From Larinioides sclopetarius (lineage: Eukaryota): DNA of 64,000 nucleotides. Every line of letters starts with the position of its first letter. Position 1 is the stretch's first letter. The DNA is taken from assembly GCA_964023285.1 (NCBI GenBank), contig CAXIEN010000102.1, positions 2,999,528 to 3,063,527 on the forward strand, in the 5' to 3' direction. A model generated the notes under the pieces. It ran no database searches. It had not been told where the DNA came from and worked only from the letters and a program-made list of their open reading frames with translations. Shown one piece after another: positions 26,798-60,441 of the stretch. Both the position numbers and the translations under genes were made by a program.

Positions 26798-27178
26798 TCA
26801 ACCAAGAGATGATAAATTATAACAATATACAAAATTATCTCGGCAACCAACAACCAAAAATCCATTCAATATAACTGGAGATGAAAATATTTCCCCACAA
26901 CACTTCAAAGTAAGTTTAATTTCGCCTGTGCTTTGACCTAGAATGTATATCATACCTGCAGCAGTTGCAACAGCAACATAATTATTTTGTTTCCATTGAA
27001 ATACAAATGGAGATGCATAAACTGGAGAGTCACTATCAAATTTCCATATACTTTTTCCATTAACATTAACACAGTATACAGCAGAGTCATGACAACCAAA
27101 TATAATATGGTTATTATCTGGAGGTAGAGCAGCAGTGGCAGATGAAAACACAGGGCCATTAGTACACAACTCAAATAC
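26798..27178 (-). CDS. AASDH: AASDH-like terminal coding exon (VFELCTNGPVFSSATAA..GKSIWKFDSDSPVYASP..GEIFSSPVILNGFLVVGCRDNFVYCYNLSSLG*), ending at the stop codon 26798-26800
   Basis: The acceptor is caattttcttag|G at 27179-27180. The exon has 126 codons carrying two further PQQ-like repeats. It is in frame with the upstream exon (..FNLSGTM|VFEL..). The stop codon is followed by AT-rich 3' flank. Confidence 0.75.
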   Translation of the reverse strand, partial: VFELCTNGPVFSSATAALPPDNNHIIFGCHDSAVYCVNVNGKSIWKFDSDSPVYASPFVFQWKQNNYVAVATAAGMIYILGQSTGEIKLTLKCCGEIFSSPVILNGFLVVGCRDNFVYCYNLSSLG

Positions 27179-27597
27179 CTAAGAAAATTGCACATTAGAA
27201 ACTTATCATTATGAAATATATATATATACTATTTGTAAACTTTTAACTTTGTTACAAACCTAAAAAATCATTTACGAATATAAAACAGCCTGAATAATGT
27301 GGAACATTATTTAAATTGAAAAATCATCTGTAATTATAGCTAAAGTTTGTAAAATTACAATAATAGTAAAATAAAATAAAGTAGGATGAATAGAAACACT
27401 TTTCAAAAAATAAAAAAAAACTGGAAATTGCAAAACAAAATATAAAAAAATTAAAATTAATGCAAAATTATTTTTTTTTGTTTACTTCTAACTTTAAATT
27501 AATAGTGAGTTTTATAGTTTGGTGTATTAAATTAAGCATCTCCCCTCCTCCCCAAGACCGGGGATTTCAGTGTGTTCATCACAAACCCCTCATGAAA

Positions 27598-28506
27598 CTA
27601 GTATGATGTGGCCATCATTAAATTTTCTTCGATATAATTATATAATTGACATGCATCAGAATCTATAGATATAACGCTTACTTTTATCCAAAACATGAAA
27701 CAAATTAATAAACTGCATCAAGCTTTTTCTTATATTTTAAGCAATGTTGAAGCTATGCTTTACCAAAGAAACAGAAAAATGCTTATAACAAGAATTTTAA
27801 AAATGCATAGCAGAGCCTCTTGTTGAGATACATGCATACAAACTGAATCAAAGTAAGTTCACAGAGTAAACATATTATGTATTAAATTTTATGAAGTTTC
27901 CAGGCAGAAACTGAGAAACCTAATCAAAAAAGCTTCCAAATTTCGAAAAATATGTGGAGGGGAAAGTGGAGTTTGAGCAATTTGTACCAAACTCCAATCA
28001 GCATCAATTTATGTTATGGTAAAACTAAATATAAAATTTCATGAAATTTTGCACATTAGTTTTTCCTCTAAAGCAGCCATAAAATTTCGCAAAATTGTGG
28101 GAAAAAAAGAAAAGCAGTGCCACCTGTCCAGTGATAGGCACCAAATCTAATCATCCATAATTTTTGTTATGATTGTAAATAATTTTTTTTTTGAAATTCT
28201 GCTTATTTGTTTTTATTCTAGAGTAGATAATACAAAATTTCTCAAACATCATGAAGAAACCGAATAGCAGCGCCCCCCCCCCATCTGTAGAGTGATCCCC
28301 ACCAAAACCAATTTATATCATGATACAGCTAAATATAAAATAGCATGGCCACAAAATTCGTGTCACACAGACGGACAGATATTTTCTAAAAATAGCCAAA
28401 TTCTGTTCAGTATTATTCAAAACGTGTAAATCCATCAAAATACGAAGTCAAAAATTTTCGCAATTCCATTACTTTCTACTTATGTACAAATAAAAGAAAG
28501 TAAAAG
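27598..28506 (+). repeat. Copy A2 of the same repeat family (longer, with an extra internal segment), in the last AASDH intron next to the Tc1 element
   Basis: See copy A1. There is 70-85% similarity over shared blocks, including 28261-28290 aatagcagcgcccccccccccatctgtagagtgatcc and 28370-28506. Confidence 0.6.
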
Positions 28507-28698
28507 GAGTATAAATTTTTAAGAATATATATGAAATAATGTCTTTTCCATCCTTGTTGGAAGCTTTCATTGACTAGATACACTCCTGGATTCCTTTCAA
28601 CAAATTCTTCTCTTTCAATTGGCTTTTATTCTTGATACATCCAGTTTTCTTTTCTTTATACCTTCAGTAAACAAAGCTTTGTGTCCATGCTTTTGATA

Positions 28699-29938
28699 CA
28701 GGTATAGGACACAATAATAGGGACAACTGTGAAAAAAATGAAAATTTTTTATTAGTAAGGAGTTGGGCCACCTTTGGCCTGAACGACAGCTTACATTCGT
28801 ACAAATAAAGGTTTTGAACAAATTTCATCAGAATTAGCACCCATTCCTCGTGCCATTTCGAGTTCAGATAGTGTGCATGGAGGAGGAAATCAAGCACGGA
28901 CTTTGTTCTCTAAATAACCCCACAAAGGCTTAATGATATTGAAATCAGGGGACTGAGGACACCAGGTTATATGTTCAACTTCATCATCACGCTCATGTAA
29001 CCATGTTTGAACACAGCGAGACATGTGAACAGGCGCGTTGTCATCATGCTGCGAACACAGGACGTTCTCCCGGAAAGCAAGTTTGAAGCATGGGGTGAAG
29101 ATGATCTGCAAGAATGCTTCAATAATGGTCGTCTGTGATCATACCCCTCAAGACAACGAGAGGCCCCAATCAACGGGAAGATATTGCGGCCCACACCATC
29201 ACAGAACAACCTCTATGTTTCATGGTTGGAACCAGACAGTCAACAGGAAATGCTTTTGCCGGTGTTCGCCAGACGAACACACGTTCGGTAGTTTGGAAAA
29301 ATGTAAACGAGGATTCATCAGACCAGATAACTTGTTCCCATTGCAGTTGTGTCCAGTTTAGGTGGTCTCTGCACCACTGTAGTTTCTTCATAGTATTCCG
29401 CGCCGAAACAAACGGTTTTGGAATTGCTACTCTGCCATGAATGTTCGCAGCTCATTGAATAGTTTTCATGGATACAGGGCTCTGAATTCATCTCGGATGT
29501 TATCTGCGACAGTGTAGTCTTGCGATTTTGAGCGACTGTCCTCTTCAACATTCGTCTATCACGGTCCTTAGACTTCGACTTTCGCCCACTGTTGTGCTTC
29601 GCAGAAGACACCTTACCCAGGTTTGTGTAGGCTGTCATAACCCTTGCCACAGTAGTCCTTGAAACACCCACAAGGTTGGATATTCTGGACACGGACGCTC
29701 CAGCGAGGTGAGCTCCAATTATCATGCCGCTTTTCACGTCGGAGAGGTTGGACATAATCACGCTTTGCTGGGAACAGAATTTTCTCATGCGAGTCTCACA
29801 CTGCCAAATGCTTGACTGGTATCTTCCCTTTCGCACTACTAGGTGGCACACTGTTGCGACATGAGGCAGCTGTTTATTGGATGGTCGAAAAATGACTCAT
29901 TTTTAAATGGGTGTTCCTATTATTTTGTCCTATACCTG
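28699..29938 (-). mobile_element. Tc1-like DNA transposon (Tc1/mariner superfamily, DD34E-type signature), about 1.24 kb, defective, inside the last AASDH intron
   Basis: Imperfect terminal inverted repeats are CAGGTATAGGACACAATAATAGGGACAAC at 28699 and its reverse complement caggtataggacaaaataataggaacacc ending at 29938. Each is flanked by TA (28697-98 and 29939-40). The internal ORFs encode a paired-like HTH (MIIGAHLAGASVSRISNLVGVSRTTVARV..RKSKSKDRDRRMLKR) and DDE segments (WSDESSF..; QHDDNAPVHMS..; WCPQSPDFNIIKPLWGYLE). These are split over three frames. Confidence 0.85.
28890..29755 (-). pseudogene. Frameshifted Tc1-family transposase remnant
   Basis: The transposase is spread over ORFs 29318-29851, 29170-29391 and 28890-29111 in different frames. 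No intact ORF spans the HTH plus DDE domains. Confidence 0.8.
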
Positions 29939-32155: not shown

Positions 32156-32190
32156 TATATATATATATATATATAGGTATATATATGTAT
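32156..32190. repeat. (TA)n microsatellite
   Basis: tatatatatatatatataggtatatatatgtata. Similar (AT)n runs occur at 16640-16660 and 35577-35600. Confidence 0.9.
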
Positions 32191-36044: not shown

Positions 36045-37308
36045 AACAGAATTAACCATAAACTGAATTATGCAACTAGATAGTAGCATCATCCATTTAC
36101 AATATTTACAGAATTACATAATAGATATGCGGAGATATGGCTATTATGCTTTAAAAAATACTTTTTTTCCTAGAACTGATTGCTATTATGCAGATGGAAT
36201 ATGAATGCATGATTGGTCGCAGTTTTGTAATGTATACAATTAATTAAAATTAAATAACTTGCAAGAACCAATCATCATTTTATTGATTTAGGAAATACTA
36301 CACTAAAAACTGTAACAAGGACTGCATAATTTATCATAAAAAATTAAAGAAATAAAATCCATTATACAACAAAAACTTAAAATGCAATAAGTAATTTGGA
36401 AAACATGCAAGATTAGAATTTTTTTTTCTTCTGTCAAGCTTTGTAAAAGCAGCAATATATGAACTGGTTAGAATGAAAATGTCAAAAGTCACAAAATTAT
36501 ACAATTTTGAGTTAAACATATATGTTTCAATTCCTTTCTGGTTATTTTGCTTAATGTGGTAGCTGTCTAATTCTATAATACATATAAAGGCCCAGATCTG
36601 GGATCAAGTAATGCTCTGACGTCCCTAACAATAAAACTTTAACAGCTATATAAAAATGCAAATGATGAAGTGATACATTTGAATTTTATAACAATAAAAA
36701 AAAGTTGTAACACAATCTGTGTTTAAAATAAATTTACAGCCCAAGAAAACATTGTATAATAATAAAATTTGTATAATTAAAAAAGATAATTCCCTGCTCT
36801 TAAGGTGATATAAAAATGATTTTCACACCATAAGCATTACAAAAGTAACTGGCAAGAAAGGTCTGCTTAATTTCCATTATTTAATTAAACAGAAACTTAC
36901 TTAGAACTTCCTTTTTAATGAATGTGTACCTTTACCAGTGTTAAGTTTCTTTTCTGTATGTTTGGTATTGTTAACGTGTATACACAAGATAAATATTGTG
37001 CTAAATTGTTTTTAAATCTGCCTTGGCATTCCATTTAATTTATACTTGATAATCACTTACTTATTAAATAAAAGATGATAAATTTTATGGTGTTTGGATT
37101 AGTTTAAGAATATTTTAAAGGAGATTTGAACGAATACAATAGACATAATACACATAATGAAAAGGCAACTTGCAACCATCATATCAAGATGGGTTATCTT
37201 CTAGTAGTACAATAAGTGATTACTAGGAGCAGCATTAAAAATATCTACAACATTGAACTACATGCAAACAGTTTTAGAAGATCTTCAATTACTCAAAACT
37301 AAGTTCAA

Positions 37309-37736
37309 AAAATTTTATTTACATTTTTTTTCCAAATTAACTTTATTATCCTTTTACAATAATTTTTCGAAATATAAATTTTACTTAAAAAAACAGCATT
37401 ACTTTCAAATTTAAATTATTATTTGGGAATAAATAGGTTTTAAATTTTTAGTTTCACTGATATTTCAGGCTTTTTATGCCATTTCTTTTTTTTTTTACCA
37501 TAATAACAAAATACCCTCTCTTTTTAAAAAATTTCTTAATAAATTTAGCTCTTAAAAATTTTACTTGATTAACTGTTAATTTTAAGCTTACATGCAAATA
37601 GCTAATCTTGAATTGAGTTTTTCATATCTTATATTTTTCTGTAGAGTTTTTTATTATGTAAATCTGATTTTTTTCCTAAAAAAACTCATGATTTTGATAT
37701 TTTAATTAATTTGAGTTATTAAATTTACACCACTAT
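37309..37736. repeat. Intact copy of a locally duplicated 430-bp AT-rich repeat. The paralogous copy at 40822-42801 is interrupted by the mariner element
   Basis: The sequence is near-identical to 40822-41138 plus 42709-42801 (..catgcaaatagctaatcttgaattgagtttttcatatcttatatttttctgtagagttttttattatgtaaatctg..). Confidence 0.8.
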
Positions 37737-38058: not shown

Positions 38059-41000
38059 CTAAAAATAGTAATATATATACTTATAATAAAAAAAATGAAA
38101 GAATAGAAGGAGCACCATGAAACAGAATAAAAAAAATTATAAACATGGAAAATATTTCTCAACTGGAAGATAAAATGAGATTCATATTTTGGATCTGTTT
38201 TTACTGCATCTAATAATTTAATGTTAAATATATGTAATTAGTTTTCAAAAAACACAAAACTAGAATCAAGTAAAAAAAAAATCATACAAGAAAATATATA
38301 CATCACACAACAAATACATTACACAGTTAAAAAAAATATTTTAAACTTCTCAGCATCTCAAGGGAGAGTAGAAAGTTTGAAGTAGGTTCCAATAAAAATT
38401 AAATGGATATGTCCAACTCCCAAAAGAACATAAACGAGAAGAAAGAATGAGGGGTGGGTGAGAAATAACGATGAAGAGATTGAGGAGACAGAGTAAAAAT
38501 ATATTTTTGAAGAAAGTCCATTTTTTAAAATGTCAATGTTAAAAATATTTGCTTCAATTGCATAGTGTTTATATGAAAAAAAAATGATTATGAATAGTGT
38601 TGTAATGAATTTTGCTAGAAAAATATATTCTATACAATACAAATGCAATTTCTTTTAAAATACCCATTGCATTTTATCATTTCAAAGCCATGTTATCTTT
38701 GTGATAAACATGTCTAAATTAGAAAAATTCAGCTTCATGGTAATTTTTGGGTTTTTTTAAGGTACACATACTGTATTATTGTACATAAGGTGAACAATAA
38801 TACACTGTCCTAGGTGCTATTCAATGTTTGATGTGACTGAAAATTATTATATCATCAATACACCTGTCTGGTTGAGATTGTTTAAGTAAATAATTTTACT
38901 TATTATTTTAAAAGTAGCGAACAATAGTTAAAATTCAGGATGTATCTCTAGTTAAAATTCAGGATGAAGTGTCTGTATGGTATAAACCAGGTGCAACATA
39001 AATTCGTGTAAGATTAAAAAATTCATTATAAAAAAGTAATGCTCGGAAAAAAAATTTGGATTGCATGAATAGGATGAGAGAAACGAATTTTTTCCATCCA
39101 TAAAAATTATTCAAGAATAAACTGAATGAGGGTGAGATATTTTATACAAATCAGACAAACATCAATCATCTGGCTAGAAATTAATTTCTTATTCAATTCT
39201 GGCAGCACGTGCTATTGTTACCAGATTGAAGGTTGGTGGTTAAACATACATACAAGAAAGGGGATTTCACATTTATTGCATTGCAAACATTTTACATAGA
39301 GAGAGAATTTAAGGTGTAAAAAGTGCACTATTTTATTGAATGAAATATTGAAATTAGGAATTTTTTTTATACGTGAAAAAGATTCAATGTCACTTTGATC
39401 ATATTCACACAAACCAAACTTTTTTCTGAACCTTACTTTTTTTATTTTGAATTTTTTAAATTTGTACAAATTTATAATAAACCCAGTTCTTGTGAATTTG
39501 AAGAAAAGGTTTTATTATATTCATTTTTATTGAAGATATACATTATAAAGCTTGTTCCAGAACAAACAGAATCAAAATAAACATTCAGAATATCTTTATA
39601 ATCACAGTTTTAAGAGAATTCAGGATTTCCGGAAGACTATCCAGAGTAATGCTTGTAAAGAAATCTTTAATATTATAAGTTTCTATGTATGTCATTCTGT
39701 CTTTATTGTTGTGAAAGAATTTAATATAGAATTGTAAAGTAGAATGCAATGTTTATGATTTAAATACAATTAGGGTTATTCTTTAGGAAGCCCTGTGGAA
39801 GACAGTTGCTGACACAGTGACAATGTTGCAGAATAGCAAAGAGTTTCTACAGAAAGATTTTCATTTTGGAATAAATAATATTTTTGGGGAATCTATAAAA
39901 TTCATATAAAAGTGCCAAAAATGTTACGCAGAATTTGCTTTCAAAAATTCTGGATCAGATGAAAGAGCAAGATAGAAGACCTTTCACCAATAGTTATAGA
40001 GATTATTGCTATTCAATTTGAAAATGGCCGTTTTTATTTGTTTATTTATTTTACAGACAACACAGTCTTTGTAGACACCAATTTGTGTCAGTTAACTTTA
40101 TGCTGTATAATTATTTTGAGATAAATGGAAATAAATTTCAGAAGTTCATAGGATAATTTAGGTTGTCGTAATATTAAGAATAATCGAAATTTCCAATAAT
40201 GCTATGAAAAATAAAATTCATATTAAAAATTTAAACTAAATTAATTATAAATTGCAACTAAGCAGAAACAAATATTAAGTGAATTTAAAGGTGAAACCAA
40301 TTATCACAATGTTTCCCTGTTGTAGAAAAATACAGTTGCAAAAAGCTAATGCTTGCTTTTTTGTTTTCAGATTTGTTTTTACAAAAAAAAATCTAATTTG
40401 GTTTCTGAATATTGATTGTTCAAGTGAAATAAAATGAATTCTGGTATAGCATTAAAAATAAAAGAGAAATGAAAGGAAAAAAATATTTTCAAAAGAAAAT
40501 GGTTTCTTAACATAGGTGACAAATAGACTTGGCAATACAATAAAATTATAATAAAAAACATATATTTAATGTGTTTAATAAATTGAAGACAGTCGATTCT
40601 GATTCTATAAAAAACAAAAGAACAATTAGGACTAGAAACTAGATATCAGAAAAACTTTAAGAACATTTTAGAAGAACATCATTTTTTTTGGCAAGAGATT
40701 CAAACTTAACAAGGAATCTTCAAATGACTCTAAACCAAGAGAAAATTCATTCAGAGTACTTTTTTTTATTACTATCTATATGTTTCTAAATCTAATTTTT
40801 GTTAAAAAACTTTAAAAAATAAAAATTTTATTTACATTTTTTTTCCAAATTAACTTTATTATCCTTTTACAATAATTTTTCGAAATATAAATTTTACTTA
40901 AAAAAAACAGCATTACTTTCAAATCTAAATTATTATTTAGGAATAAATAGGTTTTAAATTTTTAGTTTCACTGATATTTCAGGCTTTATGCCATTTCTTT

Positions 41001-41138
41001 TTTTTTACCATAATAACAAAAAACCCTCTCTTTTTTAAAAAATTCTTAATAAATTTAGCTCTTAAAAATTTTACTTGATTAACTGTTAATTTTAAGCTTA
41101 CATGCAAATAGCTAATCTTGAATTGAGTTTTTCATATA

Positions 41139-42708
41139 CAGGGTCTTTATAATTAAAGTTCCACTTTGAAATGGCTATAAAAATAAAACTACCCGACCAA
41201 ATGTCATCAAACTTGGTAAATGTCTATAAGAGGTCATGGGATTTTAGTTCCCGCAAAAAAAGTTCCAAAATTCACCACCAGCAGAGAATGGCGCTGTATT
41301 CAATAGCGTTAAACGAAATAAAAGAGGAAAACATCAGTTGCAAACACTTTTATTGTTGCTACATTTTCTGAAAGCAAATGAAATCGCAATATTGCATTCT
41401 CAACAGGACTTCTAAGCATATCTGGAGAAATGTTACGGACATGTCTGTGTATCGCATTCTTCAATTCCACTAAATTGGTTATGTTATCACCATAAGCAAT
41501 GGCTTTGAGATAACCCCACAACCAGAAGTCACAGGGGTTGAGGTCTGGTGATCGGGCTGGCCAAGAAAATGGGAAGTTTCGGGTTACAATAAGGTCGTTC
41601 GTGAAATGTTGCTGCAGTAACTGTTTGACACACCCACCAATGTGAGGTGGAGCCCCGTCCTGCATAAAGATCGTGGTGTCTAAAATGCCCCGTTGCTGAA
41701 GTTCAGGTATCACGAAACATCTGAGCATCGACTCTAAGCGAGCAGCAGTCACAGTGCATGTCACGGGCCCAGCTGCCGATGGCTCTTCAAAGAAAAAAGG
41801 TCCAATTATGAAATTTGCTGTCATATCGCGCCAAACGGTGACTTTAGGCGAATGTAATGGAACTTCGTGGATAATATGACGGATTTCTTTGGCCCAAATC
41901 CTGCAATTATGGGTGTTTACATCCCCATTTAAGTAAAAATGTGCCTCATCTGTCCACATAATGTTCCATGGCCAATTGATGTCCACCTCCATCCGTGCCA
42001 GAAAACTCAAAGCAAATGTTTCTCTTAAAGCCGGATCTCTAAGTTGAAGTTGTTGAACAAGTTTGATTTTGTAAGGGTAGTACTGCTACACTTTCCGAAC
42101 TATTTTGTATACCGTACTCAATGGTAAGTCGAGTCGACGTGCAACAGCACTTACGCTGCGCGTTCCCTGTCTGCTGTCCATTGATGCTTCCTCTACTGCT
42201 AATGCAACAGCCTCGATGGTTTACACAGACACAGATTTTCGTCCACGCCCAGGTGCTACAGATAACAAACCTGTGGCTTGAAATTTTGCTATCATTTTCC
42301 TTAAACCTTGCGGTGTCATTGGACCTCGGCGTTTTCCTCTTACAGTACGGAACTGTTGTAAAGCCCTCCGTTCATTGCTGTCTCATTCATAGTAACATTT
42401 CACGAGCAAAGCACGGTCTTGCATGGTAACAGACATTGTCGACTCAAAACACTGACAGCTCAGACAAGACGCCTCACTTTTATAACTGCAAAGTCACATG
42501 ACGTGTAAAACAAATTTGCATATTTCACATTTGTTTAACACTATTGCATACAGCGCCATTCTCCGCTGGTGGTCAAATTTGGAACTTTTTTTGCGGAAAC
42601 TAAGATCCCATGACCTCTTATAGACATTTACCAAGTTTGATGACATTTGGTCGGGTAGTTTTATTTTTATAGCCATTTCAAAGTGGAACTTTAATTATAA
42701 AGACCCTG
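41139..42708 (-). mobile_element. mariner-like (Tc1/mariner superfamily) DNA transposon, about 1.57 kb, with about 200-bp terminal inverted repeats, TA-flanked
   Basis: The left end is CAGGGTCTTTATAATTAAAGTTCCACTTTGAAATGGCTATAAAAATAAAACTACCCGACC.. (41139-). The right end is its reverse complement, ending ..AAGACCCTG at 42708. The two ends correspond to each other over about 200 bp, and both are translated by chance as MAIKIKLPDQMSSNLVNVYKRSWD.. on opposite strands. TA flanks lie at 41137-38 and 42709-10. Internally there is a transposase with a D..D..D catalytic motif (DEAHFYLNG; FMQDGAPPH; WPARSPDLNPCDFWLWGYLK). Confidence 0.85.
41309..42424 (-). pseudogene. mariner-family transposase, disrupted by in-frame stops in the N-terminal HTH region; the C-terminal 233 aa are open
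   Basis: The N-terminal translation reads MQDRALLVKCYYE*DSNERRALQQFRTVRGKRRGPMTPQGLRKMIAKFQATG..SV*. This is mariner-type HTH with two stops. The C-terminal ORF 41309-42010 carries DDE/D catalytic residues. By my count there are 42 residues between the second and third catalytic Asp. That would suggest a DD41D-like spacing rather than DD34D, but it needs a proper alignment. Confidence 0.7.
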
Positions 42709-43646
42709 TATTTTTCTGTAGTTTTTTATTACATAAATCTGATTTTTTTCCCTAAAAAAACTCATGATTTTGATATTTTAATTAATTTGAGTTATTAAAT
42801 TTAACTTTACTCATAAATAAATAAATTTCTAATTTACCTTAAGTTTCATTGATATTTCAGGTTATATATAATAATTTATTTCCTGAAATTCTTAATCAAT
42901 TATACTGCTTGATGTTAACACATTTTTGACAGCTAACTAATCAAATGCAAGTCTGGAAAAGGTCAAACAGCATGGATATTATCTCCGGTTAATAATATGT
43001 TAAAAGGGGATTTATAGAAAATCTAGCACATTGTGACAATCACCAGTGACCCACATTGATCTATTTAATTAATTACCTTTTCTCTACTATAATGAAAAAG
43101 TAGCAGAAAAGGGGCCATCTAATTAGATGGTTTGAACCCCAGGTATGAATCAGGGCATTAAACATATTAAATTTTTGCAAGAATTAATACTTTTATAATT
43201 TTGGTTATTGTCAAAAGGTTTATTTTTACTGTGAAAGACATTAGAATCATTCTGGACCTGATTTCGACATTGTTTAGAGCCAGTCTTTTTTTTTTCTTCC
43301 CCTCTAAAATTTCATAAATGTCAGAAGTTTCCTAAAAGCATTTGTTAAATGTGTTGTATTTAAGCATCAAGTAAAGCTGTCAAAATTCTAAGAAAATAAA
43401 TATTATATTATTTATGACTTACTCTTAAATTTGCATATTTGCAAATTCCTACTTTGAGGAAATTTTTCGCATAAAGATTTAGGTATTAAAGAAATTTGCC
43501 ACAGACAGCATAATTTTCTGCCACAGGGTTAGGAAGTTATATTTTCTAAAATGTTTGGTAGTTTAATTCTCAATGAATTATTCCATTCTAACATTCAGCT
43601 ATATGGACAATAATGCTATCATAAATGAAAAAAGAATTAGACTTAC

Positions 43647-44119: not shown

Positions 44120-47100
44120 CTGTAACAAAAGTAAAACCCCATTAAATAGAATAAAAATGTAAAAAATAATACATTTTTTGTTCCAACATATTTTAAAGGG
44201 GAATTTACAAATCAATTTCATTTTGCTTTTTCAAAAAAAAATCAATATATAATTAGTTTAAAATTTTATTATATGCACACATAATAATAAATTATTGAAA
44301 AAAACATATTACACTGTATATCGTAGTCAGTAATTTTAATCTATCACATAATAAAAATCTAAAATTAATCAATACTTCATTTATAATGCAATTAAAATAT
44401 TGAGTATAACGAACAGTAATCAGAATGAAAAACTATGCAAAAACATTTACACAATACAATTTTTTTAGTTACACTAATATCTTCAAAGAAAAAGAAAAAG
44501 TAAAATGTGAGATGGATGACAGTAAATAGTACAAATGAACGAGTTTATTAATCATAAATAATGCAGAGTACATATAAATTTCATCTTTATTTTTACAATT
44601 CTTAATGTATTGAAATGCAACACAGATGGAATTTGTATACTAATAAAGACATTATAATTAAAAACAAATAACGCAACACTAAATCATTTGAAAATAAAAA
44701 CTGTTTTGCAATGAACTTAAACATCATTTTGTATCTTTTTTTAGGAGGAAGAGGCGGTGCTCCTCTGACAAAAAACACTGTCGAGACATTGATTCTATTG
44801 AAGGCAGTAATGAAACATTCAAAGCACTATCTATGTGAGATGAAATAAAACGGTGATGAGAGCTTAATGATTCCTTTAATAAAACAGAATCCAGACATTG
44901 AACTCTTTTTCTTGGCCATACAAGCATATAATGTTAAATACTCGGGACAGGCCAGAAAGAAAAAAAATTATGACAATCGAGAATCTTCAATTCCCATATA
45001 ATTAGTAATCACTTCACGATTTAGTTATTAATTTCAACGTGCATCTTTATTTCTTACGAATCTGGAAAAAGAATTAAATGTTTGTTATATATTACATTAG
45101 AAAAGTTTACTACCATATGACAAATTCGGTCAAATATAAATACAAAAAAGCAATTAACATATAATTTAGAAGCACACACAGTGGCTGATGTGTTATATAG
45201 AAGTTAATGTGTTAAATAAGCAGAGGAATAATATATTGAATTTCTGCTCTTTTCATTAATAGCACATGTCTAAGATTGTGAAACTGTCACTAAATAGGAA
45301 CAAATTTCATAGGATCAAAGAGTATCTGACTTTCAAATAATTCTCCAAAACTTAAGTGTTTTATCAGCAAGTTCAACAAATAAATGTAGAGTAGATTAAC
45401 TTCTCTCTAAATATATCGCACAAAATAAAGAAAATCATAGTGTAATGCATGGCCCAGTTGTATATTTGGCATTTATTTTGCACTAAAAGATCTGTGACAG
45501 TCTAAAACAGGCTTTTAGTTTGACATCAATATCTCAGATTTCAAACTAAAGTTGTTGAAGAAAATCATCTCCACATTGCAAAATACTAAATAAATAAAAA
45601 AAAATCATGATCCATAATGTGTACCTGCACTAAAATCTCACTAAAAAAATATGCAAAAGAAAAACATCAAAATACTTTTTCTTTCAAAAGTAACGGAAGT
45701 CGCTCTCAGAATTTAAGGAACCTGCACCTCATCCCCAGTTCATCAGTAACTGAAGAATTGAGTTCCATCCTCTCTCAATTCTAGGAAAAAACCCTTGGTA
45801 ATTGGGGTCTATGTGAATGTTTCTGGGGAGCGCTGCAAATGCGTGTTTGGTACAATGACCGTTGTAGGAGAGGTGGCAAGTGGGTGCCTGGTATGGTAGG
45901 TCATAGCCAAGCCATGCTCATCATTAAAAGATGGTAGAGGACAAATATAATATAGAATGAAATTGAATAAATTTTTTAAACATATTTTATTGTTTGTATG
46001 TCATGCTACATATTATATTTTTAAAACAATTTTATAATTTGCATGCCATATAACTCATTGCTAGTACTTTTTATTTCATCAAATAAATAAATAGAAAAAC
46101 AGGACACTTGTACATTTAATGACATTTTTGTGTACTCAAACTAATCCAATGCTTTCAACACTTTGTTTGGTGAGAATAGTGCAAAATCATTACATTGATA
46201 TGAATTGTAACTAAAGCTAAATTTATAACAATTGTTATATTTCAAAATTACAGTATTGAGAATAATACCAAAAGCTAAATTAAGTGACAGTACATAGGTT
46301 GCAAAAACCATATTTAAATAATCAAAAACAGTTTTGCAAAACTATTACCTTCACTAAAGTAGATGTAGATGTCCTGTCAGCTCAATGTTAAGGGCTCATC
46401 ACCAATAACAATTTAAATACATCAAACCACATTATAACAACATTAATTTAGAAATTTAGTATAAAAAATAACAGTTATCCATCTAAATAATATCTGTCAA
46501 TGGCTATCCACAAATATCAAATTAGCATTTAATTTTTAAAGTGGGTAAAAACCTAAATATACATTCCAAAAATTTGCATAAATATGTTACAACCACTTTC
46601 TTACCTTCCACAATCTAGATAGAATATTCAAAACAGCTGAATCAGAAGTGTGCTGGCATAGTTTTCTTTCATTATTTCTTGAGTTTTTTAATGCAACCAA
46701 TTTGTTGTAATCTGCCTTTCCTTGAAATATTATAATTTGAAGTTAATTTAAATGAAATAAAAAAAGATCAAATTCATAGGATTAAAAAAGGATAAAAAGA
46801 AACAAATAGTCACATTCTAAAACGTCTAACATTACTTTCAATATGTTACAAAAGGTGGGAGGGAGAGTTACAGCATTTATTTATATATTCTTAAGAATAA
46901 GGATGAACTACAATGAAAAATGATTTTAAATAAAGTTCTAAAAATGAAATGTATATAAACTCAATTTTTTTAAAGCTGTTAATGATTTTATCTTTAAATA
47001 AAAAAATCTGGAAATAAGGAAATACAACAGAACTAACTTTTAAATATACTTAACAATTACAAAGTATAGCTTATAATCTAAATATTAATATTTATAATCA

Positions 47101-47174
47101 AACCCTTAATAATATTCCAATTTAAAATTAATAATAATATATTTTAATTTTGGAGTACAAGAAGCAGGTTTCTA

Positions 47175-48822: not shown

Positions 48823-49214
48823 ACCATGTTTAGTTAGTGGAATGTAGGGCACAATTATCACTTCTGTTATAGGAAGACTAGAAATTGACTGCTGGAGTTT
48901 TTTCAGTACTTCATATCTAATATGTTCTTCACCAGTTCTCTTTTTGTCTAAAACAACAAACAGCAAAAGCTTTGAAGATTCAGGATCAAAATCCAAGTAA
49001 TGATTAGTGATTCTAGAAATACCTTCAACAAGAGTATTTATTGTAAGTAATGATAATTTTTGTCCTTTGAACTTTAAAACGTTATCTTTTCGGCTTTCAA
49101 AACAAAATGAATTGTCAGAAATTTGAAAAACATAGTCTCCTGTTTTACGCATAATTATGTGTTCATTATCTGGCCATTCTTCATCATTGATCACACACCA
49201 TCTTTTCTTTCCTC
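48823..49214 (-). CDS. AASDH: AASDH-like adenylation-domain C-terminal exon (A7/A8/A10-region: ..IMRKTGDYVFQ..SRKDNVLKFKGQKLSL..PYIPLTKHG)
   Basis: The acceptor is tgttttatttttttag|G at 49215-49216. The translation contains the Y(R/K)TGD and GRxDxxxKxxGxRxxL adenylation motifs and a PLTxxG A10-like end. The donor on its 3' side is not resolved. The best candidate is catg|gtact near 48822, so the 3' boundary is approximate. Confidence 0.55.
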
Positions 49215-49550
49215 CTAAAAAAATAAAACATAAGAATTTTTATTTTTAATTATAAATATAGCTAAAAAAGTTTATTTTTTTCAACCTTTTATTTCATCAT
49301 GAACATTAAGTTTTCAATAATGATTCACTCAAACACTGTTAATAATTTTATTTTTGCCACAAACTTATAGTCTGAGTAACCCCTATCCTTGAATCTTGGG
49401 AGCAGTCTGGTGGTACAAAATATACATGTCAATCATGACAGATTCAAAGGAACCACAACTACTGATTGGAATGTTTTATTCCTCACAATGGTTAAAGGCT
49501 GAGATTTAAGAGAGTTTGACAAAGGGCAGAACACGGCCCAATGTCTTATG

Positions 49551-50190
49551 ATTGTTGTGGAAGTGGTGGAGCTGGTGAGCTCTTCTTTTTCTAGAATAAT
49601 AAATATCTACAGAAAGAGACAAACACTAAGTATTAAAGCACAGTTGTAGGTGCCACAAGCTGTCATGTTTGGTACAGAACAATGGATGCCATTCTATCAC
49701 TTCAGTTGGTTACATATTTTAATGCAAACCAAAGCAGATATATTTCAGAGTACACAGATCAGTAAATACTGTCTTCATCTTTAGAACATCATCCGTTCAT
49801 AATTATTTTGGAAATGGTGGAGCTAGTTAGTTATTTTTATGCAAGAGCAAACAATATCTACAGAAAGTGGCAAACAGTAAGTATTAAAGCACAGTTGTAG
49901 GTGCCACAAGCTGTCATGTTTGGTACAGAACAATGGATGTCATTCTATCACTTCAGTTGATTACATATTTTAATGCAAACCAAAGCAGATATATTTCACT
50001 GTACACAGATCAGTAAATACTGTCTTCATCTTTAGAACATCATCCGTTCATAATTATTTTGGAAATGGTGGAGCTAGTTAGTTATTTTTATGCAAGAGCA
50101 AACAATATCTACAGAAAGTGGCAAACAGTAAGTAAGTATGAAAGCACAGCAGTAGATGCTCAGACTGTCATGTTTGGTAGAGTACCTTTG
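49551..50190. repeat. Tandem repeat, about 245-bp unit in about 2.6 copies, in the large AASDH intron
   Basis: ggaaatggtggagctagttagttatttttatgcaagagcaaacaatatctacagaaagtggcaaacagtaagtattaaagcacagttgtaggtgccacaagctgtcatgtttggtacagaacaatggatg.. is repeated at 49811 and 50056. A more diverged copy lies at 49557. Confidence 0.8.
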
Positions 50191-52039
50191 TTGCTTTTCT
50201 GAACTCATATTGACTGCTTATTTTAATACAGGGCAAGACAGATATAGGCCAGAGTACATAGCTCAGTGTGAATACTGTCTCCATCTTTTAAAAAAAGGGC
50301 TTCACTAATGCTACTAAATCTACATTCCATTATTCACTTGATACCATAATCATTTATGGTGAGGGCAAATTACTATAATCATCAGATCTCTGAACAGTGT
50401 AAAGGTATTGGTCACATTAACCTAAATTCTAGTCTTTCCTTCTAATGCATCATACATCTAGTACAGTTCTACCTACCTTCTAGTGCATCGTATCAGTAGC
50501 AGTATCAAAATGCATAAGTTCTCAAAGAAACAACTATCAGATAGATGTTAACTGATTGCAAATGCAATTCAGTAAATAAAAGGGGAGAATGTTCATTAGA
50601 TTGCCCTGTCATGGATCTGTTGTCATAGAGATCACACTATGAAAGCTATAGACTAACTTAATGCTTTTGTGCATCAGTTACATCCACTTAGGTACTTACT
50701 TTTCCAAATAGCAGACCCTTCCAACCAGTGATCTGGACTGAGGGACCCCAAAACTGGGTATCTTACAAAAAAATTTATTTTTGAATGCTGATTTGAAATG
50801 AAATATTCAGCGTTTAATAAATACTCCTCAAAACAAGCATTTGCACAAAAAAAGTATTTGTGGATGGTTATTCAGAATTAAACTTAAAATTTATAAATAT
50901 CCCAAAATGGGTATTAAGTAAAAATATAATTGAGGATAGTGAGATTCAAATAGAAGCTTTAATTGTATGACAACCTTTACACTGAATATTTTGTGCAAGC
51001 ATATAAAATTTATAACTTAACTCTTAACTGAAAATTTTACAAAAAAAAAAATGCATCTTAGAATTTTGATTCAAAATGAAACTTTAAAATAATAAATATC
51101 CCGAAACTGGGAATTTTTTAACAATTATTTGTAAATGGTGATCCAAAATAATTTTTTTTAAATAATAAAAAGTACACATAAACTGGGTATTTTGTAAAAT
51201 GAAAAAAGTATTTGCAAGATGACAATTTAAAATTAAACATAAAAGAATTTATAAGCATAGTAAATAGTTACAGATTTTTTTAAATTAAAGTTTTGACTAA
51301 ATTATATAATCAAAAGCCATTTGCTCTCTGGATGCAGAATAAAAGTGTTCTAAATCTTAAACCGAACTAGGGTATAATTTTGTTTCACTGATTGGAAATT
51401 CTGATATTTACAATAAAATAATTATTTAAAAAGTTGTTTATCTAATACCAGTTGCCTTTGGCGGCTAGCTGATTTGTGGGGAATATAATTTCAACTGACT
51501 CTTTTATGCATAGTTTGAAATTCCAGGACCAGAACAATTTACCTGAGTAATTTTACACTTCAAATTGTGACAGAGGTTTAGCCACGTTCTGTAAATACTC
51601 TAGCATATGTTCTGTTCCTTATCTATTTGGAAGTCTCTAATAAGATCAAGCTAATGTTCATTTCTAATTACTTCTAATTGTATGGAATCTATGTGAATGT
51701 GATATAACAAATTTATTTCAACATCAAAATACCTCAGCACTTTTTATGTCCAGTAGCATGTTAAATGGGTTAGAACAGGCTAATAAAATTAAACATAGTA
51801 ACCATAATCCTTGAATTTACTGGATTATTTCCTTTCATACTTACTATCTTGATGACTTTCTTTACAGATTCAGAAAAAAAAGATGATCAAGTAAGAAGAA
51901 AATTCAATGGAATATCATATTAACTTTAAACAATGGAAGAGAAAAAAAGAAATTAAATATTTGCTTAAACAAATGAAAACGGTTTGAATTCCAATGTTAC
52001 AATGTATGTAAGAAATATTTTTTTTAAAATTTACTAAAA

Positions 52040-52475
52040 TTAAAGAACAAAATCGAGTGAAAACTCGATTTTTAATCGACTATCATCATTGAAAATGTAA
52101 GTTGAATTTAGTTTTTTCAATGACATCATTGAAAAGGTAAGTTAAATTTTCAAACAGAGTAAAAAAATTGTTGTAATGTTCTTGGAAGTTATTAAGAAAA
52201 AAATCTAATACAACACTTATAGAACAAAATCGAGTTTATTAAGTAAAAGTATAATAAATTAAAGAACAAAATCGAGTGAAAACTCGATTTTTAATCGACT
52301 ATCATCATTGAAAATGTAAGTTGAATTTAGTTTTTTCAATGACATCATTGAAAAGGTAAGTTAAATTTTCAAACAGAGTAAAAAAATTGTTGTAATGTTC
52401 TTGGAAGTTATTAAGAAAAAAATCTAATACAACACTTAATTTTTTATTAAGTAAAAGTATAATTAAAATAGAAAA
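52040..52475. repeat. Tandem duplication, about 218-bp unit in 2 copies, each containing the perfect palindrome aaaatcgagtgaaaactcgatttt
   Basis: 52040-52258 and 52259 to about 52475 are near-identical (taaagaacaaaatcgagtgaaaactcgatttttaatcgactatcatcattgaaaatgtaagttgaatttag..). Confidence 0.8.
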
Positions 52476-54719
52476 TAATTACAAAGTACACATTCCTACT
52501 CTTCAAATTATGTTTATGCTAATTTTCTTTGCTCTAAGCCTGACTTTCTGCCTTGTACAGGGCCATAGCACAAATATTCTTCTTTATTATTATTAAAGAT
52601 AAACAACTCATTGAACAATGAATCTTGCGATCCATAATTTACTCACATTCTCATGCTAGAAGTCAAACATTTTAATTTTTATTGAATGAAAAGTAGTTAT
52701 TTACTTGGCTATTTCTGTCAATTTTATGATAAATATTTTTAAAAAATTTAAAGTTAATGTTAAGAAGGATAAAAGTATCTATTTTAAATTCTGCAATGTT
52801 AAGTACAATCTAGACCAACATAAAAGCAAATAAACAGACAAAAAATAAAAATATTTCCCAAGTGTTAGTAAATTAAAGCAGGTTTTGAGAGAGATGAAAT
52901 AAATAATGAACAATCTTTTAATCAGATTCTAACCATAACACTTAAACTTTAGTGTATTAATAACATTCAAGTACTGATGTTTACGATCCAAAAAAAGATC
53001 CCGTCTAAACAGAAAACTGTGTGTGTGTGTCTATACTATAAAGTAATATAACATATTCAGCTAAAAAGAAAAAAAAAGACGTGTGTCTTATTGCAATTTT
53101 TTTATGAAAAAAAATAATATACTTTTGTTGAAAGTAATGAGTCAATACTATTTTTAGAATAGTTCATATTAATAAACTGATAACCTATCAAATGTGTCTC
53201 GTACATTGATTAATTAATCCAAAAAAGAAATCATTAACATCTGTGTATCTTAGATTTAAGTTTCCATTATCAGCTTTTTATCATTTTTAAACCAAACTCA
53301 ACATTCTTTTTTTTTTATTTAATTGAGCTTTTAAAATGATTAATATTTAAGTAACATATTTTATGGACGATACGATGCATGATATAATATAGCGTTTTCA
53401 TTTTCCTTTTCTGATTTATTTTTGCTATTTTGTAGAATTTCAAAAGATCCGTATATTGTTAATTCTTTTTACCACACCTAATGCTCAATATATATTCTAA
53501 GCACATTTATATTATATAGAGACATCATATTTCACGGCAGTGCCCGAGTTTTATCAGAATAAGAATAATTAAAAAATAAATACCCTGGTAAGGATAATTA
53601 CCATTTTGGGTATTTATCCTTAAATTAATTAATAATAAAAATAAATAAATAAAAATAAAATTAAATTATTACATGTCTCCATAAATATAGCATACACAGC
53701 TGAGTTCAACTTTAAATGGCTTAAAACATGTTGATAAAAAGAGTTAAAACATAGTAATGTCGGATGGGGTAAAATATGTAATAAAAATATATAGTTTATG
53801 AAACAAAAGCTATTTAATTACATTTTTAGTTTTTTAAGTTGGATATTATTGTCAGCTGTTCTAATTTCCGTTTCTTAACTGATATTTTTTTTCAGTTTCT
53901 TTATAAGTGAGTGGTAACACATTAAACCGAAGAGGAAAAGCTCAAGCTTATGCCATATGTTATGCTTTTTAACTTTCACTGCCAGAATCAGACTATTGAG
54001 GAATTCTTATTAATCAGAGTGGCATTGTTATGATATTTGTTATGATTATTGTTATGTTTTTTGTTGACATTTTTACAGCTGCTTCAACTTGTAGCCAAAG
54101 GAAAATTTCTTTTTTCAATCTCTTATTTAGAAAATGGGATAAAATGGGTATATGGCCAGGCTTCACATTTTGCATCTTGTAAAAGAGAGATACAGAACAA
54201 TTTTTTTCTTTAAATAAATAATCATTAATATAAATTGAAAATTACTAAAACATAAATTTTCCCTTTCACAATTATTTCTAAAAATTATGTACATAAAGGA
54301 TCGGGAAAAAGAAAGAAAAGAAAGAAAGTAAAAATAGGAATAGCGAGATAGATAAAATTTGGTACACAATTTCCTCAACATAAATTTATGTCCATATAAA
54401 AGTTTGGGGAAAATCCGTTAAATGGTTAACCCTCGGTCGGTCTGCAAAATCAAATATTTGTAAAATTTATATCTCTTAAACCTTTTGCCGGAGTTATATA
54501 AAAATTTTTATGACGAATGCTATTAATAATTGTAAACCTGTGCAAAATTTTCGTCCAGATCGATTGAGAAAAAACTTTTTAAATATCCTTTTCAGTTTTA
54601 TAATTATTGCAATGAATCCGAACTCTTCGCGCATGAGCTCGTCTGCTTGACCTTCAGCCCGCCGCTGATTAATTACGTGAAAATAATTTTTCGAACGCGC
54701 AGAGTCAAAATTTTTATCA

Positions 54720-55065: not shown

Positions 55066-58000
55066 GATGATTATTACTTCCTCATTGCTTTAAAGTGCAT
55101 CGTAAAACAACAAGCGATTTTCTGACAACTGTTGAAATGAGCAGGTTTGGTACTATGATTTCTTCATTTTCCGAGACCGATTCCTCCACACTTCTTAGTG
55201 TGATATATCTTGATATGTTTCTGATATTTATGATGTCTGTTGCAATTTCGGAGTAAAATTTCTCTCCTGATATTTGTAAATTATTATATTGATACATATC
55301 ATAAAAAGTTTCAATCATTCCTTCTTCTTCATTGATGATTATTATCTCTGTAAGGTTAAAAACCTCATCAGAAATGTTTAGTTCACACTCTTTGTAGTAG
55401 TTTGATATTGTTTAGGATGAATCAATGCTCCATGAATTGCAAATTGTATGATGGAATTCAAAATAAAAACTGATTTTAATTTTAAATCATATGCACTCTG
55501 AAAGTTTGATTTTAAAAAACGGCAGTAATGGTTTTATTAACAGATGCTTTCAACATGTTTTGATCATAGAGTTGGGATAAATAGAGGAAGTCAGTTGTAT
55601 ATTTCCCTCCGAAAGGAGTGGACCCAAAATTACTCGCGTGACTTGTGGATTGGGTAAGAGCTGGGGCACCTTTTTTGGCGAAATATCGTTAGTCTGAGCG
55701 CGCAACAAACTTTCGTACTGTAACTTTTTTTAGGTGGACATGGCTTGCCCCTTGTTTTAACAATATTATTTGAAAACTACAACTACAATTCTAAAAACGT
55801 TTATCATTTTATATATATACTGTGAGGATGCTATTTTCAGTTATTATTATTCTTTTTTTATTTCCCGTTGAACTGAGGAATAAGAAAATCCATTCCCGAA
55901 ATATTTGAGAGTCAAAATTCGTTAGAATACTCTTTTCACAGTTCAAGAACATGCAAGAATGAATAAACTATAATGGAAGAATAAATTTTCTGCCAGAAAC
56001 GAAATTGTCAGCTTTCGGAATAGAAACGTGGATATAATAGTAATTAGATTAAGGACTTTAGCTACAAATTGCTTTAATCAAATTACCACTGGATCAAAAA
56101 TGCTTTTCAGTCATAACACCATTATTAGAGTATTGATTGAAATCATATTTACTTTTTTCTTTCGTTTTCCGAAAATATTTGAGCTCGTTTTTTTTCTTAA
56201 GAAATCATTTTAATTTTCTTATTTACATAGAAAAAGCATTTTAATTTTGCTAGTTAAAATGTTGTTGGTATTATTTCAAATGCTTAACATTTTTAAGAAC
56301 ACATTATAAAACTGAGCTATTAGACTTTTTTCCCCAAAAAATATGTACAGTATGTCAATGATATTCATGTCATTTGAAATAGACATGGAATTTAAACATG
56401 GATGTATATAGATATTGTGTGATTTTCTTATTAGATATTCTTGTTTTAAAAAAATTAAAACTTAAGTAAATTTTAGCATAATTTATTCATTGATTCTTAG
56501 AACAATATAATGTACAAGTAATACTTTAGTAGAAAATTTTTATAATGCCTTCTAAGAATTAACGAGATAACTTATTATTTTTTTAAAAAAAGGACCTTAT
56601 CATTGTAACCTGAATTATTTATTCTTAAGTATCAAAATGCTGTTCATTATAGTAATTTTGGACAATTTCTTTTAAATCGTTAGTTTCTTTTTAGATCTTT
56701 GCAGTAGATAATTGAAATACATTGAAAAATATGCTATTATGACAATTTTTTTTTATAAAATTCTATCAAACATAATTTTTAATTGCAGATACGTTTTCAA
56801 ATGCACTATTTCATTTCTAATGATGGCATTGACGTTCATAAGGTCACAATTCAAATAACTACAAGAAAAAAAAACTAAATATTTGAAATAATAAAGATTT
56901 AGTGTTAAATAACTTCCATTAGGGAAAAATTTCTGTTATTTATCATTAATGTTTATTACTTACATTTATGTTGGCGGGAAAAAAGTCACGCCAAGTTTGA
57001 AGCCAAACACGGGTAACATATTCAGGATTAAAATAAAGCAAGTAAGAAAATATACTGTAGTTACATCAGTTAAAATGATGCGTAATAACCAGTTTACTAC
57101 ATTAAATGCAATGAATACAGGAAATTATGAAATAATATTCAATTATTATATCAAAATCACCGAGTATTCGAAGGTACAGAATTATAAATAGATTCTAAAT
57201 GTGTATAAATAGAATATGTTTATTGTATGTTCTTGTGAAACGACACCTTGCAATCCTTAGAAGCTTTTTCTTTGCATCCAAACACACAACAATAATGCGC
57301 TATGATTTTAACAGGTTTTAAACTTATACAGTCAAAATCGGCGAACTAGCTGCCATAGGCAAGCAATGGAGAATGAAGAATGCGGTTGCAGTGAACACCA
57401 ATTCTGTCCACAAGTCATTTGATTTTATTTTGGCGTCGCGCCGAGTAGGGTTGCAATCTCTCTATCTACTATCCCAACTCTATGGTTTTGATGTTGTAAT
57501 GATTCAGTTTGTGAAGATTTGATTTTATAATCCAGTGATTTCATTAGTGGCGGTTACTATATGAATAAAAAATTGGCTCAATGAAATGAAACTTATGATT
57601 CTATAGCTAATTTTTTTTGCTTAGCCTTTAATAAATTAATAAATAAAAAACAATCTCATGCCAGTGAAAATGAAAAAAAATCACTTACAATAAAATACAT
57701 CCCCTATAAGCCTTTCAGTATAAGAACGGTTTAAAAAAAATACTAAATGCAATAAATATTCAATTCCAAACAGGAAAGAAAAAAAAACATTTAAACTAAA
57801 GCCGAAGTATTTTAAATTAATAATACAAAAAATTTAACTCTTGAATCAACAACTTTGTTTTACTTTCACTGAGAGTATAATGAAAATAAAAAGAAATGAA
57901 TCAAATGAAGAAATCTTATTGGCCTTTACAGAAATCCTGCGTGCACAAAAAATGGCGAAGGAAAAAAAAGCAAATAAAAAGTGACGAAAGTTATATTAAC

Positions 58001-60361
58001 AAAATAATCAAAATTATATTTCTGGTTGTATACATAGATGGACTTGTATGTGCTTTTGTTATATTTTTTTATGATAAAAGTTCTTTAATGATAATAAAAA
58101 TTACTGCTGTGCATTCAGCTGATTTTTATTATTATTACTTAAAAATAATGAGGTACACTTTTCATACAGAACTTTTCATTATTATCAGTTAGCATATAGA
58201 GTTAGGATTTAAATTATGAAGAAAACTTGTTGTTTTCCTTCATAGTTTGTTACATAAAGTATTAATTTTCTAAGAGAAGACAAACAATAAATATTTCAAA
58301 ATTTCAACTGTTCTTGTTTATAATTAAGTAAACTAAAGTAACATTGAATATTAAATATTTTCATGCCACTACGCTGAAGATGGAGCAAAAATTTGACAAA
58401 AGATTCCCTGGAAAAATAATAAGTGGAAAATCAATTATCCTTCATGCCCAGATCATCGCTATCCCGGTTATCTAAACTTCGTAATTTTCTGGATCCCCCA
58501 TTTTTTCAGCGATAGTTTTTCCGCTTTAAATTACTCTAACAAATAGTAAAGTATTTCTAAGAAGAAAACAGTAAAAAAAATCATTATAAATTTAGAAAAA
58601 TTAATGAAAAACTTTCAAGTACAGAAAAAAATAAGATAAAAATGCAATACAAAATTGACACTAATATTTATTTTTTATATGCATTTTTAAGCATGGATGG
58701 AAAATTAAGGAATCAAAAAATAGTTTGAACAAGAAATTGTTTTATAGCTTTTGTTATAACTTTCTTTACGATTATTTAAGTAGAGTCTATAAAATGTAAA
58801 TACACTTTGCTTTATTTCTGTAAAATATCAATTTCATACAGTGTGGTAGCTTATATGCTTCTTTTACCCCTCCCCCTTCCATAAAGATGGTCAAGCATAT
58901 TCTGAGAGGTTACTATATTTCTACAGATTATTATTATAGTTAAGTACGGATTAAGTATTCCGACTTTATTATTGAATTTTTAAAAAATGCAGTATTTTAT
59001 AGCTTTGTTTTAGTTCTCCAATCGAAAATTGGCACACAATTTAATTGAATTTTTTATGCATACTTTATTGTATTTTAAATAAAATATTACAACTCCATTA
59101 AATCTTTTATATATAATGTTAAATCTTCTATATTTATAACGAAAAAGTGCAGACTTTTTCAAAATTGGTGGAAAAGTTTGATATATTTTCCGAAAATGAC
59201 AAAAAATGCTTATTTTAAAAAAATGACAGAAAGAGAGAGTAAATTTTTTACAGTTTTTTAGTTCCTGGATAAAAAGGTCTGTACTGTAATTATTAAGTTT
59301 TTATCAATGTACATAAATTAAATTTTCAAGTATTTATTTATGTTATTTAAAATGAGATATTTATAAAATAATTTTAATAAACTTCAAAAGCTTTAAAGAA
59401 CCATACTGAATAGTTTGGCATGTAAAGGGTTAAAAAAAAATTCAAAAAACATGATATATTTTTAATAGAAAAAAATTAAAATCTTTTTTTAAACATGATA
59501 TTTTTTGAAAGTATAATGACTCTTTCAGCCTTTAGTATCCTTTTTTAAGTCTAGAATTATCCATGGGTTATATGAAAGATGATCAAATATTAAAAATTAT
59601 GAATGAGTCACAATTTAATAACAAATAATCATTAATTTTTTGAGCAATAACAGATACAAAATCATATTTTAAGGAGAAAAAACACTATTTTATTTTTTAC
59701 CAAACTTATAGCATAATTTGAGCCTTTTTAATAATAATTAATAAAAACTTATTTAAATCTGATTTTTATAGTTATTAAATCACTGTACAGCAAGAAATAA
59801 TTATTTTTAAAAACATCTGTTACGGTATCAGATTTAGAGACACCCATTTTACTCCACAACATACCAATTTTCACCTGGGTTCGATAGATTGGGTTCACAT
59901 AACATATGGTTAAAAACTATCCCCACAAGTAAATATATCTATATTATAATACCAATGAAACTTGCTTAATTTCACTCTCAAAATGTGTAACACAAAAAAA
60001 AGGTTTAAAAAATAATATTTTGAAAATATTTTTTTAAAGTGAGAATGAAAAATAAGCTGTTTCCTACCCGTTTGTTTGTTAGATTTTGTAAACCTTTTTT
60101 GTAAAAATGGTGATTAACTGCCAAAATACAATAGTACTTATTTTAATGCAACCCTACATATTCTATCTCAAGCTGTCCTGAAAGTCGTATGTTTATAATC
60201 AATGCTCTTTCATACTTTCCATTGTGTAATTGGCTCTAGATTTTACCAAACACCAAGAAAACTGAAATTCACATCTTCATAAATAATGAATTTAAATAAA
60301 CAATTTTTTTAAAAAAAATTTACTCAATAAATTAATATCAGATTATTGAGAAAATGCATAC

Positions 60362-60441
60362 CAACAGAAAGTTCACCTTCAGTGACTTCAATAACTGTAT
60401 CCAGAAGAGGTTCACCCAAAGGAATTGATGGGGAAAGATAC
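60362..60441 (-). CDS. AASDH: AASDH-like exon encoding the A5-region motif (.YLSPSIPLGEPLLDTVIEVTEGELSVG.)
   Basis: The minus-strand translation matches the adenylation-domain pattern IGxPIxNTxxYVLD...GELxIGG. The exon is flanked by an acceptor (tttaaag|G) and a donor (G|gtatgc). It ends in phase 2, giving GG at the junction. It is short, and nothing else cross-checks it. Confidence 0.45.

Follow-up and report, generated by a model that had tools for sequence, protein, structure and literature searches.

Does the minus strand between positions 26798 and 60441 of a 64,000-nucleotide stretch of DNA from the araneid spider Larinioides sclopetarius (contig CAXIEN010000102.1, positions 2,999,528 to 3,063,527; hereafter the window) encode a working AASDH gene, and if so, how much of it? 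The question was raised by a reading of the letters by eye (the original prediction), which had joined minus-strand exons into a gene for an AASDH/ACSF4-U26-like protein. We find that the region almost certainly comprises exons 6-14 of the single-copy, 14-exon orthologue of AASDH/ACSF4-U26, the beta-alanine-activating enzyme. The gene is real, intact and ordinary: it is already annotated in L. sclopetarius, its family is well known, and we found nothing that contradicts the gene call. The value of the analysis lies mainly in annotation quality, that is, in a verified exon/intron table for the AASDH locus.

Exon chain and gene boundaries

When the window is searched by tblastn with four spider orthologues, nine blocks are marked, all on the minus strand. 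We required the spliced translation to reproduce exactly CAL1277469.1, an annotated partial isoform, and the introns to be bounded by GT/GC-AG. Under this criterion each intron has one solution, and all eight introns are GT-AG. The nine coding exons form an open frame of 669 residues without a frameshift or premature stop. The coding part, 2,011 nt, is 6% of the 33,644-bp span, in a window of AT-rich eukaryotic DNA (29% GC). From the most upstream intron on, the introns measure 11,147, 2,104, 2,485, 5,588, 3,567, 2,999, 372 and 3,371 bp, and their phases are 1, 1, 0, 2, 1, 0, 0 and 0. The product is 100% identical, without a single sequence difference, to residues 336-1004 of L. sclopetarius CAL1277470.1, which must therefore be encoded by the same gene. 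The latter is a 1004-aa 'Carrier domain-containing protein' (UniRef100_A0AAV2A3D3) that shares its cluster with CAL1277469.1. The coding sequence is thus represented in the window by its 3' two-thirds; only the exons for residues 1-335 are lacking.

The first exon in the window, exon 6 of 14 (60441-60362), is 80 nt long and has the same length and phase as exon 6 of Araneus ventricosus. Its acceptor, with AG at 60443-60442, reads TTTAAAG|G; the codon here is split in phase 2, and position 60441, where the exon opens, is its final base. That base completes K335; YLSPSIPLGEPLLDTVIEVTEGELSVG follows, and the exon closes on the opening base of the following glycine codon. Included is GELSVGG, the A6 core of the adenylation domain. 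The core-motif scheme of nonribosomal peptide synthetases (NRPS) assigns GELxIxG to A6; the motif that had been called A5-like is A6, and the A5-type NLYGLTE occurs further towards the N-terminus, in a stretch of the protein that the window does not encode. The 3' end of the exon reads ...PLGEPLLDTVIEVTEGELSVG / ...SIPLGEPLLDTVIEVTEGELSVG and is followed by the GT donor (GTATGC at 60361). The string originally given for this exon is the one quoted peptide not found exactly as written: its last G belongs to a split codon that the next exon completes.

Exon 7 (49214-48825, 390 nt) covers the C-terminal subdomain of the adenylation domain. It encodes A7 (MRKTGDY), A8 (SRKDNVLKFKGQKLSL) and PLTKHG and ends one base into the codon for the A10 lysine, which a phase 1 donor (GTACTA) splits. 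Its 3' boundary, previously left open, is now settled at 48825. Exon 8 (46720-46605), 116 nt long as in Araneus, encodes (K)ADYNKLVALKNSRNNERKLCQHTSDSAVLNILSRLWK; with it, A10 (GKxD) is complete, and the linker and first helix of the carrier domain are added. Its inclusion raises the Pfam PP-binding score from 16.0 to 18.4 bits. Exon 9 (44119-43647, 473 nt) leads from the carrier domain (peptidyl carrier protein, PCP) to the start of the propeller; it encodes SGGDSFMALQL with the phosphopantetheine-site serine, a poorly conserved linker, and the first propeller residues, KCIDASPCLAYFF. The rest of the chain is propeller: exon 10 (38058-37907, 152 nt) encodes blades 1-2 and is followed by exons 11 (34339-34179, 161 nt), 12 (31179-31054, 126 nt) and 13 (30681-30550, 132 nt). 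The last one, exon 14 (27178-26798), ends with the TGA stop (26800-26798), which is counted in its 381 nt, and contributes the last three blades. A hexamer of the AATAAA/ATTAAA type, a possible poly(A) signal, starts at 26725, some 70 nt past the stop.

For eight exons the reconstruction by eye was right to the base, and the ninth had been predicted correctly. The quoted peptides and their places were borne out, apart from the final G noted for exon 6. The outer coordinates were exact as well: 26798 closes the stop codon, and 60441 opens the most upstream exon in the window. The exon count of eight was wrong: there are nine, and the one missed, 46605-46720, is the small exon that had been suspected between 44.1 and 48.8 kb. 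All five quoted junctions hold in position and phase, and all are GT-AG, as found by spliced mapping to an orthologue. In one of them, written YVFVG|G|CYD, the split glycine was counted twice, and the true sequence across the junction is YVFV-G-CYD, or YVFVGCYD. Spliced mapping of an orthologous protein had itself been named as a check, and it returned a unique GT-AG chain. It had also been supposed that one or more exons might be missing between the exons at 60.4 and 49.2 kb. We rejected an extra exon between A6 and A7 in this 11.1-kb intron because all orthologues run through GELSVGG(E/K)KRWCVIN ungapped and Araneus has a single intron there.

The gene of Araneus ventricosus (BGPR01002406.1), mapped in the same way, has 14 exons. 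Exon 5 ends in phase 2, and exons 6-14 measure 80, 390, 116, 476, 152, 161, 126, 132 and 381 nt, with phases 1, 1, 0, 2, 1, 0, 0 and 0. Since these lengths and phases match the series in the window, the gene model is confirmed independently. The difference in exon 9 (473 nt here, 476 nt in Araneus) is an indel of one codon. The two proteins are 82-85% identical and have the same domain order.

What, then, of the 5' part of the gene? A sensitive tblastn search with three spider orthologues and the spider's own protein found no exon for residues 1-335 in the 60.4-64 kb interval or anywhere else in the window, and by an exact test no 7-mer of these residues occurs in any of the six window frames. 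With no match to residues 1-335, the gene runs out of the window: exons 1-5, which encode these residues, most of the AMP-binding domain and motifs A1-A5, lie beyond position 64000. The adenylation domain is accordingly split, its N-terminal subdomain being encoded upstream of the window and its C-terminal subdomain (A6-A10) within. This incompleteness had not been recognized in the original prediction.

The partial isoform CAL1277469.1 begins differently. Its first residues, GKTSTIISSEDHHILDI (residues 1-17, within a stretch of 17-21 peculiar residues), are unlike those of any orthologue and are absent from all six frames of the window. This start is probably either spurious or an alternative 5' exon upstream of 64000. 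It is improbable that the isoform represents a real transcript in which a short alternative 5' exon outside the window replaces exons 1-5; a gene-prediction artefact is more likely. Were the transcript real, its product would comprise the C-terminal subdomain of the adenylation domain, the carrier and the propeller only. The adenylation part would be a catalytically dead fragment, and the product might serve as a free-standing carrier/propeller adaptor.

Family assignment and proposed function

The first database and Pfam search used the 629-residue concatenation of the original prediction, which is without exon 8. It returned 264 homologues at E <= 1e-5, and among the 120 best of these the named proteins are nearly all beta-alanine-activating enzyme, ACSF4 or AASDH. 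Identity drops with phylogenetic distance. The top matches are from L. sclopetarius itself (94%), Araneus ventricosus (82%), Argiope bruennichi (73%) and Trichonephila (58%); after these spiders come ticks (about 33%), a scorpion, crustaceans, molluscs, echinoderms and vertebrates (about 29%). The profile search that had been named as a further check finds that the concatenation covers the full Beta-prop_ACSF4 profile (E 7.8e-111), with PP-binding weak. The 669-aa product matches the same model (PF13570) over positions 1-329 of 329, with 377.5 bits against a cut-off of 133 (E 8.5e-113). This match and the complete identity to CAL1277470.1 leave no room for chance. In the full-length L. sclopetarius protein, AMP-binding (PF00501, 1.8e-35) covers residues 26-355, PP-binding, again weak, residues 525-570, and Beta-prop_ACSF4 (1.9e-112) residues 673-1000. 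The NCBIfam model for an amino-acid adenylation domain, TIGR01733, also matches this protein (1e-46), under the model's bacterial cut-off.

In an alignment of 17 species, MRKTGDY (A7), SRKDNVLKFKGQKL (A8), PLTKHGKAD (A10) and SGGDS with the carrier serine are retained in the window product, which bears out the motifs as first read. Together with GELSVGG, the three adenylation motifs belong to the C-terminal subdomain, A6-A10; they align with all orthologues and also match adenylation domains of NRPS in the PDB. A7, A8, the A10 lysine and the GGDS serine are kept across arthropods, molluscs, echinoderms and vertebrates. Across 30 orthologues, 34 columns do not vary, the carrier serine (S234 in the numbering of CAL1277469.1) among them. 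Every residue visible in the window that is needed for adenylation and carrier loading is kept in the spider protein. The AASDH/ACSF4-U26 identity proposed originally is upheld by the named homologues, the full-length PF13570 match, the conserved motifs and the exon structure in Araneus.

The AlphaFold model has a mean predicted local distance difference test score (pLDDT) of 84, rising to about 95 over the propeller. The propeller is modelled as eight four-stranded blades (8 x 4 strands), the last of which is closed by the N-terminal strand; the earlier count of about six PQQ (pyrroloquinoline quinone) repeats was too low. The three-helix carrier region is modelled at pLDDT 85-93, and low-pLDDT linkers lie at residues 282-301 and 335-340 (CAL1277469.1 numbering). 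The best fold match is the designed eight-bladed protein Cake8 (TM score 0.94, root-mean-square deviation 2.1 A), followed by the eight-bladed BamB and YxaL.

Adenylation and carrier chemistry is shared with other proteins, and the gene could be read instead as one for an Ebony-type or canonical multi-domain NRPS. The adenylation-PCP part matches solved NRPS modules, namely tyrocidine synthase 1 (E 8e-30, residues 28-590), LgrA and DltA, and it has the same chemistry as Drosophila Ebony. Ebony also activates beta-alanine (PMC10531068). However, Pfam and NCBIfam scans of the window product and the full-length protein found no condensation domain, and such scans found no thioesterase or Ebony-type amine-selecting domain either. 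The C-terminus is instead the ACSF4-specific eight-bladed propeller (E about 1e-112), which Ebony and the NRPS modules lack, and the named proteins among the matches listed are overwhelmingly AASDH orthologues. The domain content refutes the Ebony or NRPS reading, to which we give practically no chance.

The historical name AASDH suggests another possibility, that the protein is a true PQQ-dependent 2-aminoadipate-semialdehyde dehydrogenase. The propeller sequence resembles PQQ-type propellers of solved structures, and the model has an eight-bladed fold of this type. There are also weak matches to PQQ-dehydrogenase models, and some database entries are so named. Yet these matches fall far under the cut-offs (PF01011, 18.7 against 26.7 bits; TIGR03075, 49 against 480 bits), and only the eight-bladed propeller fold is common to the two. 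According to the accounts of the enzyme in PMC10531068 and PMC4882622, citing Drozak et al. (2014), the dehydrogenase assignment has never been demonstrated. We consider a dehydrogenase of this kind extremely unlikely.

We return to the AASDH/ACSF4-U26 assignment. The spider protein shares with the vertebrate enzyme the adenylation-PCP-propeller architecture, the Pfam propeller model, the conserved A7, A8 and A10 motifs and GGDS. It differs in having about 29% identity, a shorter linker between carrier and propeller and, in araneids, a serine for a glycine in A8. Some of these features, among others, weigh against the assignment or against parts of it. The A8 change is found in Larinioides, Araneus and Argiope (ESRKD versus GRKD). 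The PP-binding match is under the Pfam gathering score of 20.8 bits in all three sequences scored (window product, 18.4; Araneus, 19.9; full-length Larinioides, 17.8), so that membership in the carrier family rests on the conserved GGDS motif and its position. The splice joins are those that we infer from protein identity and cross-species conservation of exons. Finally, beta-alanine as the substrate is extrapolated from vertebrate enzymes about 29% identical, and the specificity-determining residues lie outside the window.

With these qualifications, how might the protein work? It is a stand-alone NRPS-like module in which an adenylation domain is followed by a phosphopantetheine carrier with the GGDS serine and an eight-bladed PQQ-type beta-propeller. 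Vertebrate enzymes activate beta-alanine in an ATP-dependent manner and transfer it to the carrier thiol (Drozak et al., 2014, FEBS J 281:1585, as cited in PMC10531068 and PMC4882622). By homology to them, the adenylation domain would form beta-alanyl-AMP, and the carrier would then take up the beta-alanyl group on its phosphopantetheine thiol. From there it could be handed to a thiol or some other acceptor. The propeller would probably act as a binding platform rather than as a PQQ redox site.

Intron growth and the integrity of the gene

That 2,011 coding nucleotides are spread over 33.6 kb is due to intron growth, to which insertions of DNA transposons and repeats have contributed. The introns had been described as 3-11 kb long and stuffed with transposons. 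Their actual range is 372 to 11,147 bp. The second part of the description is plausible but only partly supported: two Tc1/mariner-type copies and other repeats were found, yet intra-window repeats cover only 3,310 of the 33,644 bp (about 10%), and no exon base is within them.

At least two Tc1/mariner-type copies are present in the introns. One, a probable decayed Tc1/mariner-type transposon of 1.58 kb (41136-42711, minus strand), occupies part of the intron that separates exon 9 from exon 10. Its terminal inverted repeats of 182 nt are 96% complementary, TA flanks CAGGGTC...GACCCTG on both sides, and a transposase-like frame with three in-frame stops lies within; the matches to the DUF4817 helix-turn-helix (HTH; 19.5 bits) and to DDE_3 (16.9 bits) are both under the Pfam cut-offs. 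The element splits a copy of a dispersed repeat of about 420 nt (40821-42803) into two parts, 40821-41137 and 42744-42803, which makes it a nested insertion. An intact reference copy of this repeat lies in the next intron (37307-37727). The other, in the last intron (28893-29896, minus strand), is a decayed remnant of a Tc1-like transposase. Pieces of HTH_29/HTH_SB, HTH_Tnp_Tc3_2 and DDE_3 (4.9e-8) are spread there over three reading frames, and the local GC content is 40%, compared with 29% for the window.

The 11.1-kb intron contains two tandem arrays. That at 49548-50179 has a period of 251 nt and about 2.3-2.5 copies, and that at 52037-52438 a period of 219 nt and 1.8 copies that match at 100%; from this identity, the duplication is presumably very recent. 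A dispersed repeat family of 74-98% identity also occurs in and upstream of this intron (61495-62000 and 63406-63911 in direct orientation, 54324-54599 inverted, and 61019-61275). Pfam scans of an intron open reading frame (ORF) at 55085-55411 and of a repeat-family ORF at 61687-62022 gave no match.

The homologous part of the gene extends over 33.6 kb here and 18.3 kb in Araneus. The two araneid genera agree fully in where their introns lie and in intron phase, whereas single introns differ in length up to six-fold, those here being the longer (11.1 versus 1.9 kb, and 5.6 versus 1.3 kb). These differences arise partly through the Tc1/mariner and repeat insertions. Could such introns signal a decaying, non-functional AASDH pseudogene with exons that only seem intact? 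Besides the transposons and the length of the introns, the absence of the 5' third of the gene from view and the annotation of a 'partial' isoform would fit with decay. The coding sequence is difficult to reconcile with it: the nine exons are all open and joined by eight GT-AG introns, repeats have spared every exon base, and the catalytic and carrier residues are kept along with the 34 invariant columns of the family. In addition, the propeller is predicted to fold with pLDDT of about 95, and a full-length product of 1004 aa is annotated for the same species. A pseudogene is thus very unlikely, and we regard the locus as an intact AASDH gene whose introns have expanded.

Neighbouring features

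No RNA genes were found in the window with Rfam at the gathering threshold or with ARAGORN. On the plus strand, a single uninterrupted ORF of 925 aa at 8014-10788 encodes EMC1 (Pfam EMC1_C, 2.1e-73; Beta-prop_EMC1_N, 1.9e-45). It is seemingly intronless, while AASDH of the same genome has 14 exons, and may be either a retrogene or a gene that truly has a single exon. There are weak cross-matches between its PQQ-like N-terminal propeller and that of AASDH.

Head-to-head with the EMC1 ORF, and about 600 bp from it, lies an uninterrupted ORF of 221 aa for an NACA-type protein (6740-7402, minus strand; NAC, 5e-24; UBA_HYPK-like, 4.7e-12). This ORF may be a processed copy, or it may share a bidirectional promoter with EMC1. 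A little way downstream of the AASDH stop, near-identical pairs of ORFs (YMNFKNSYSWHLN..., TISRI.LSQIFGNDILEKF...) occur on the minus strand at 24296-24616 and 25607-25939. The pairs lie about 1.32 kb apart and point either to a direct duplication or to a repeat that is present twice.

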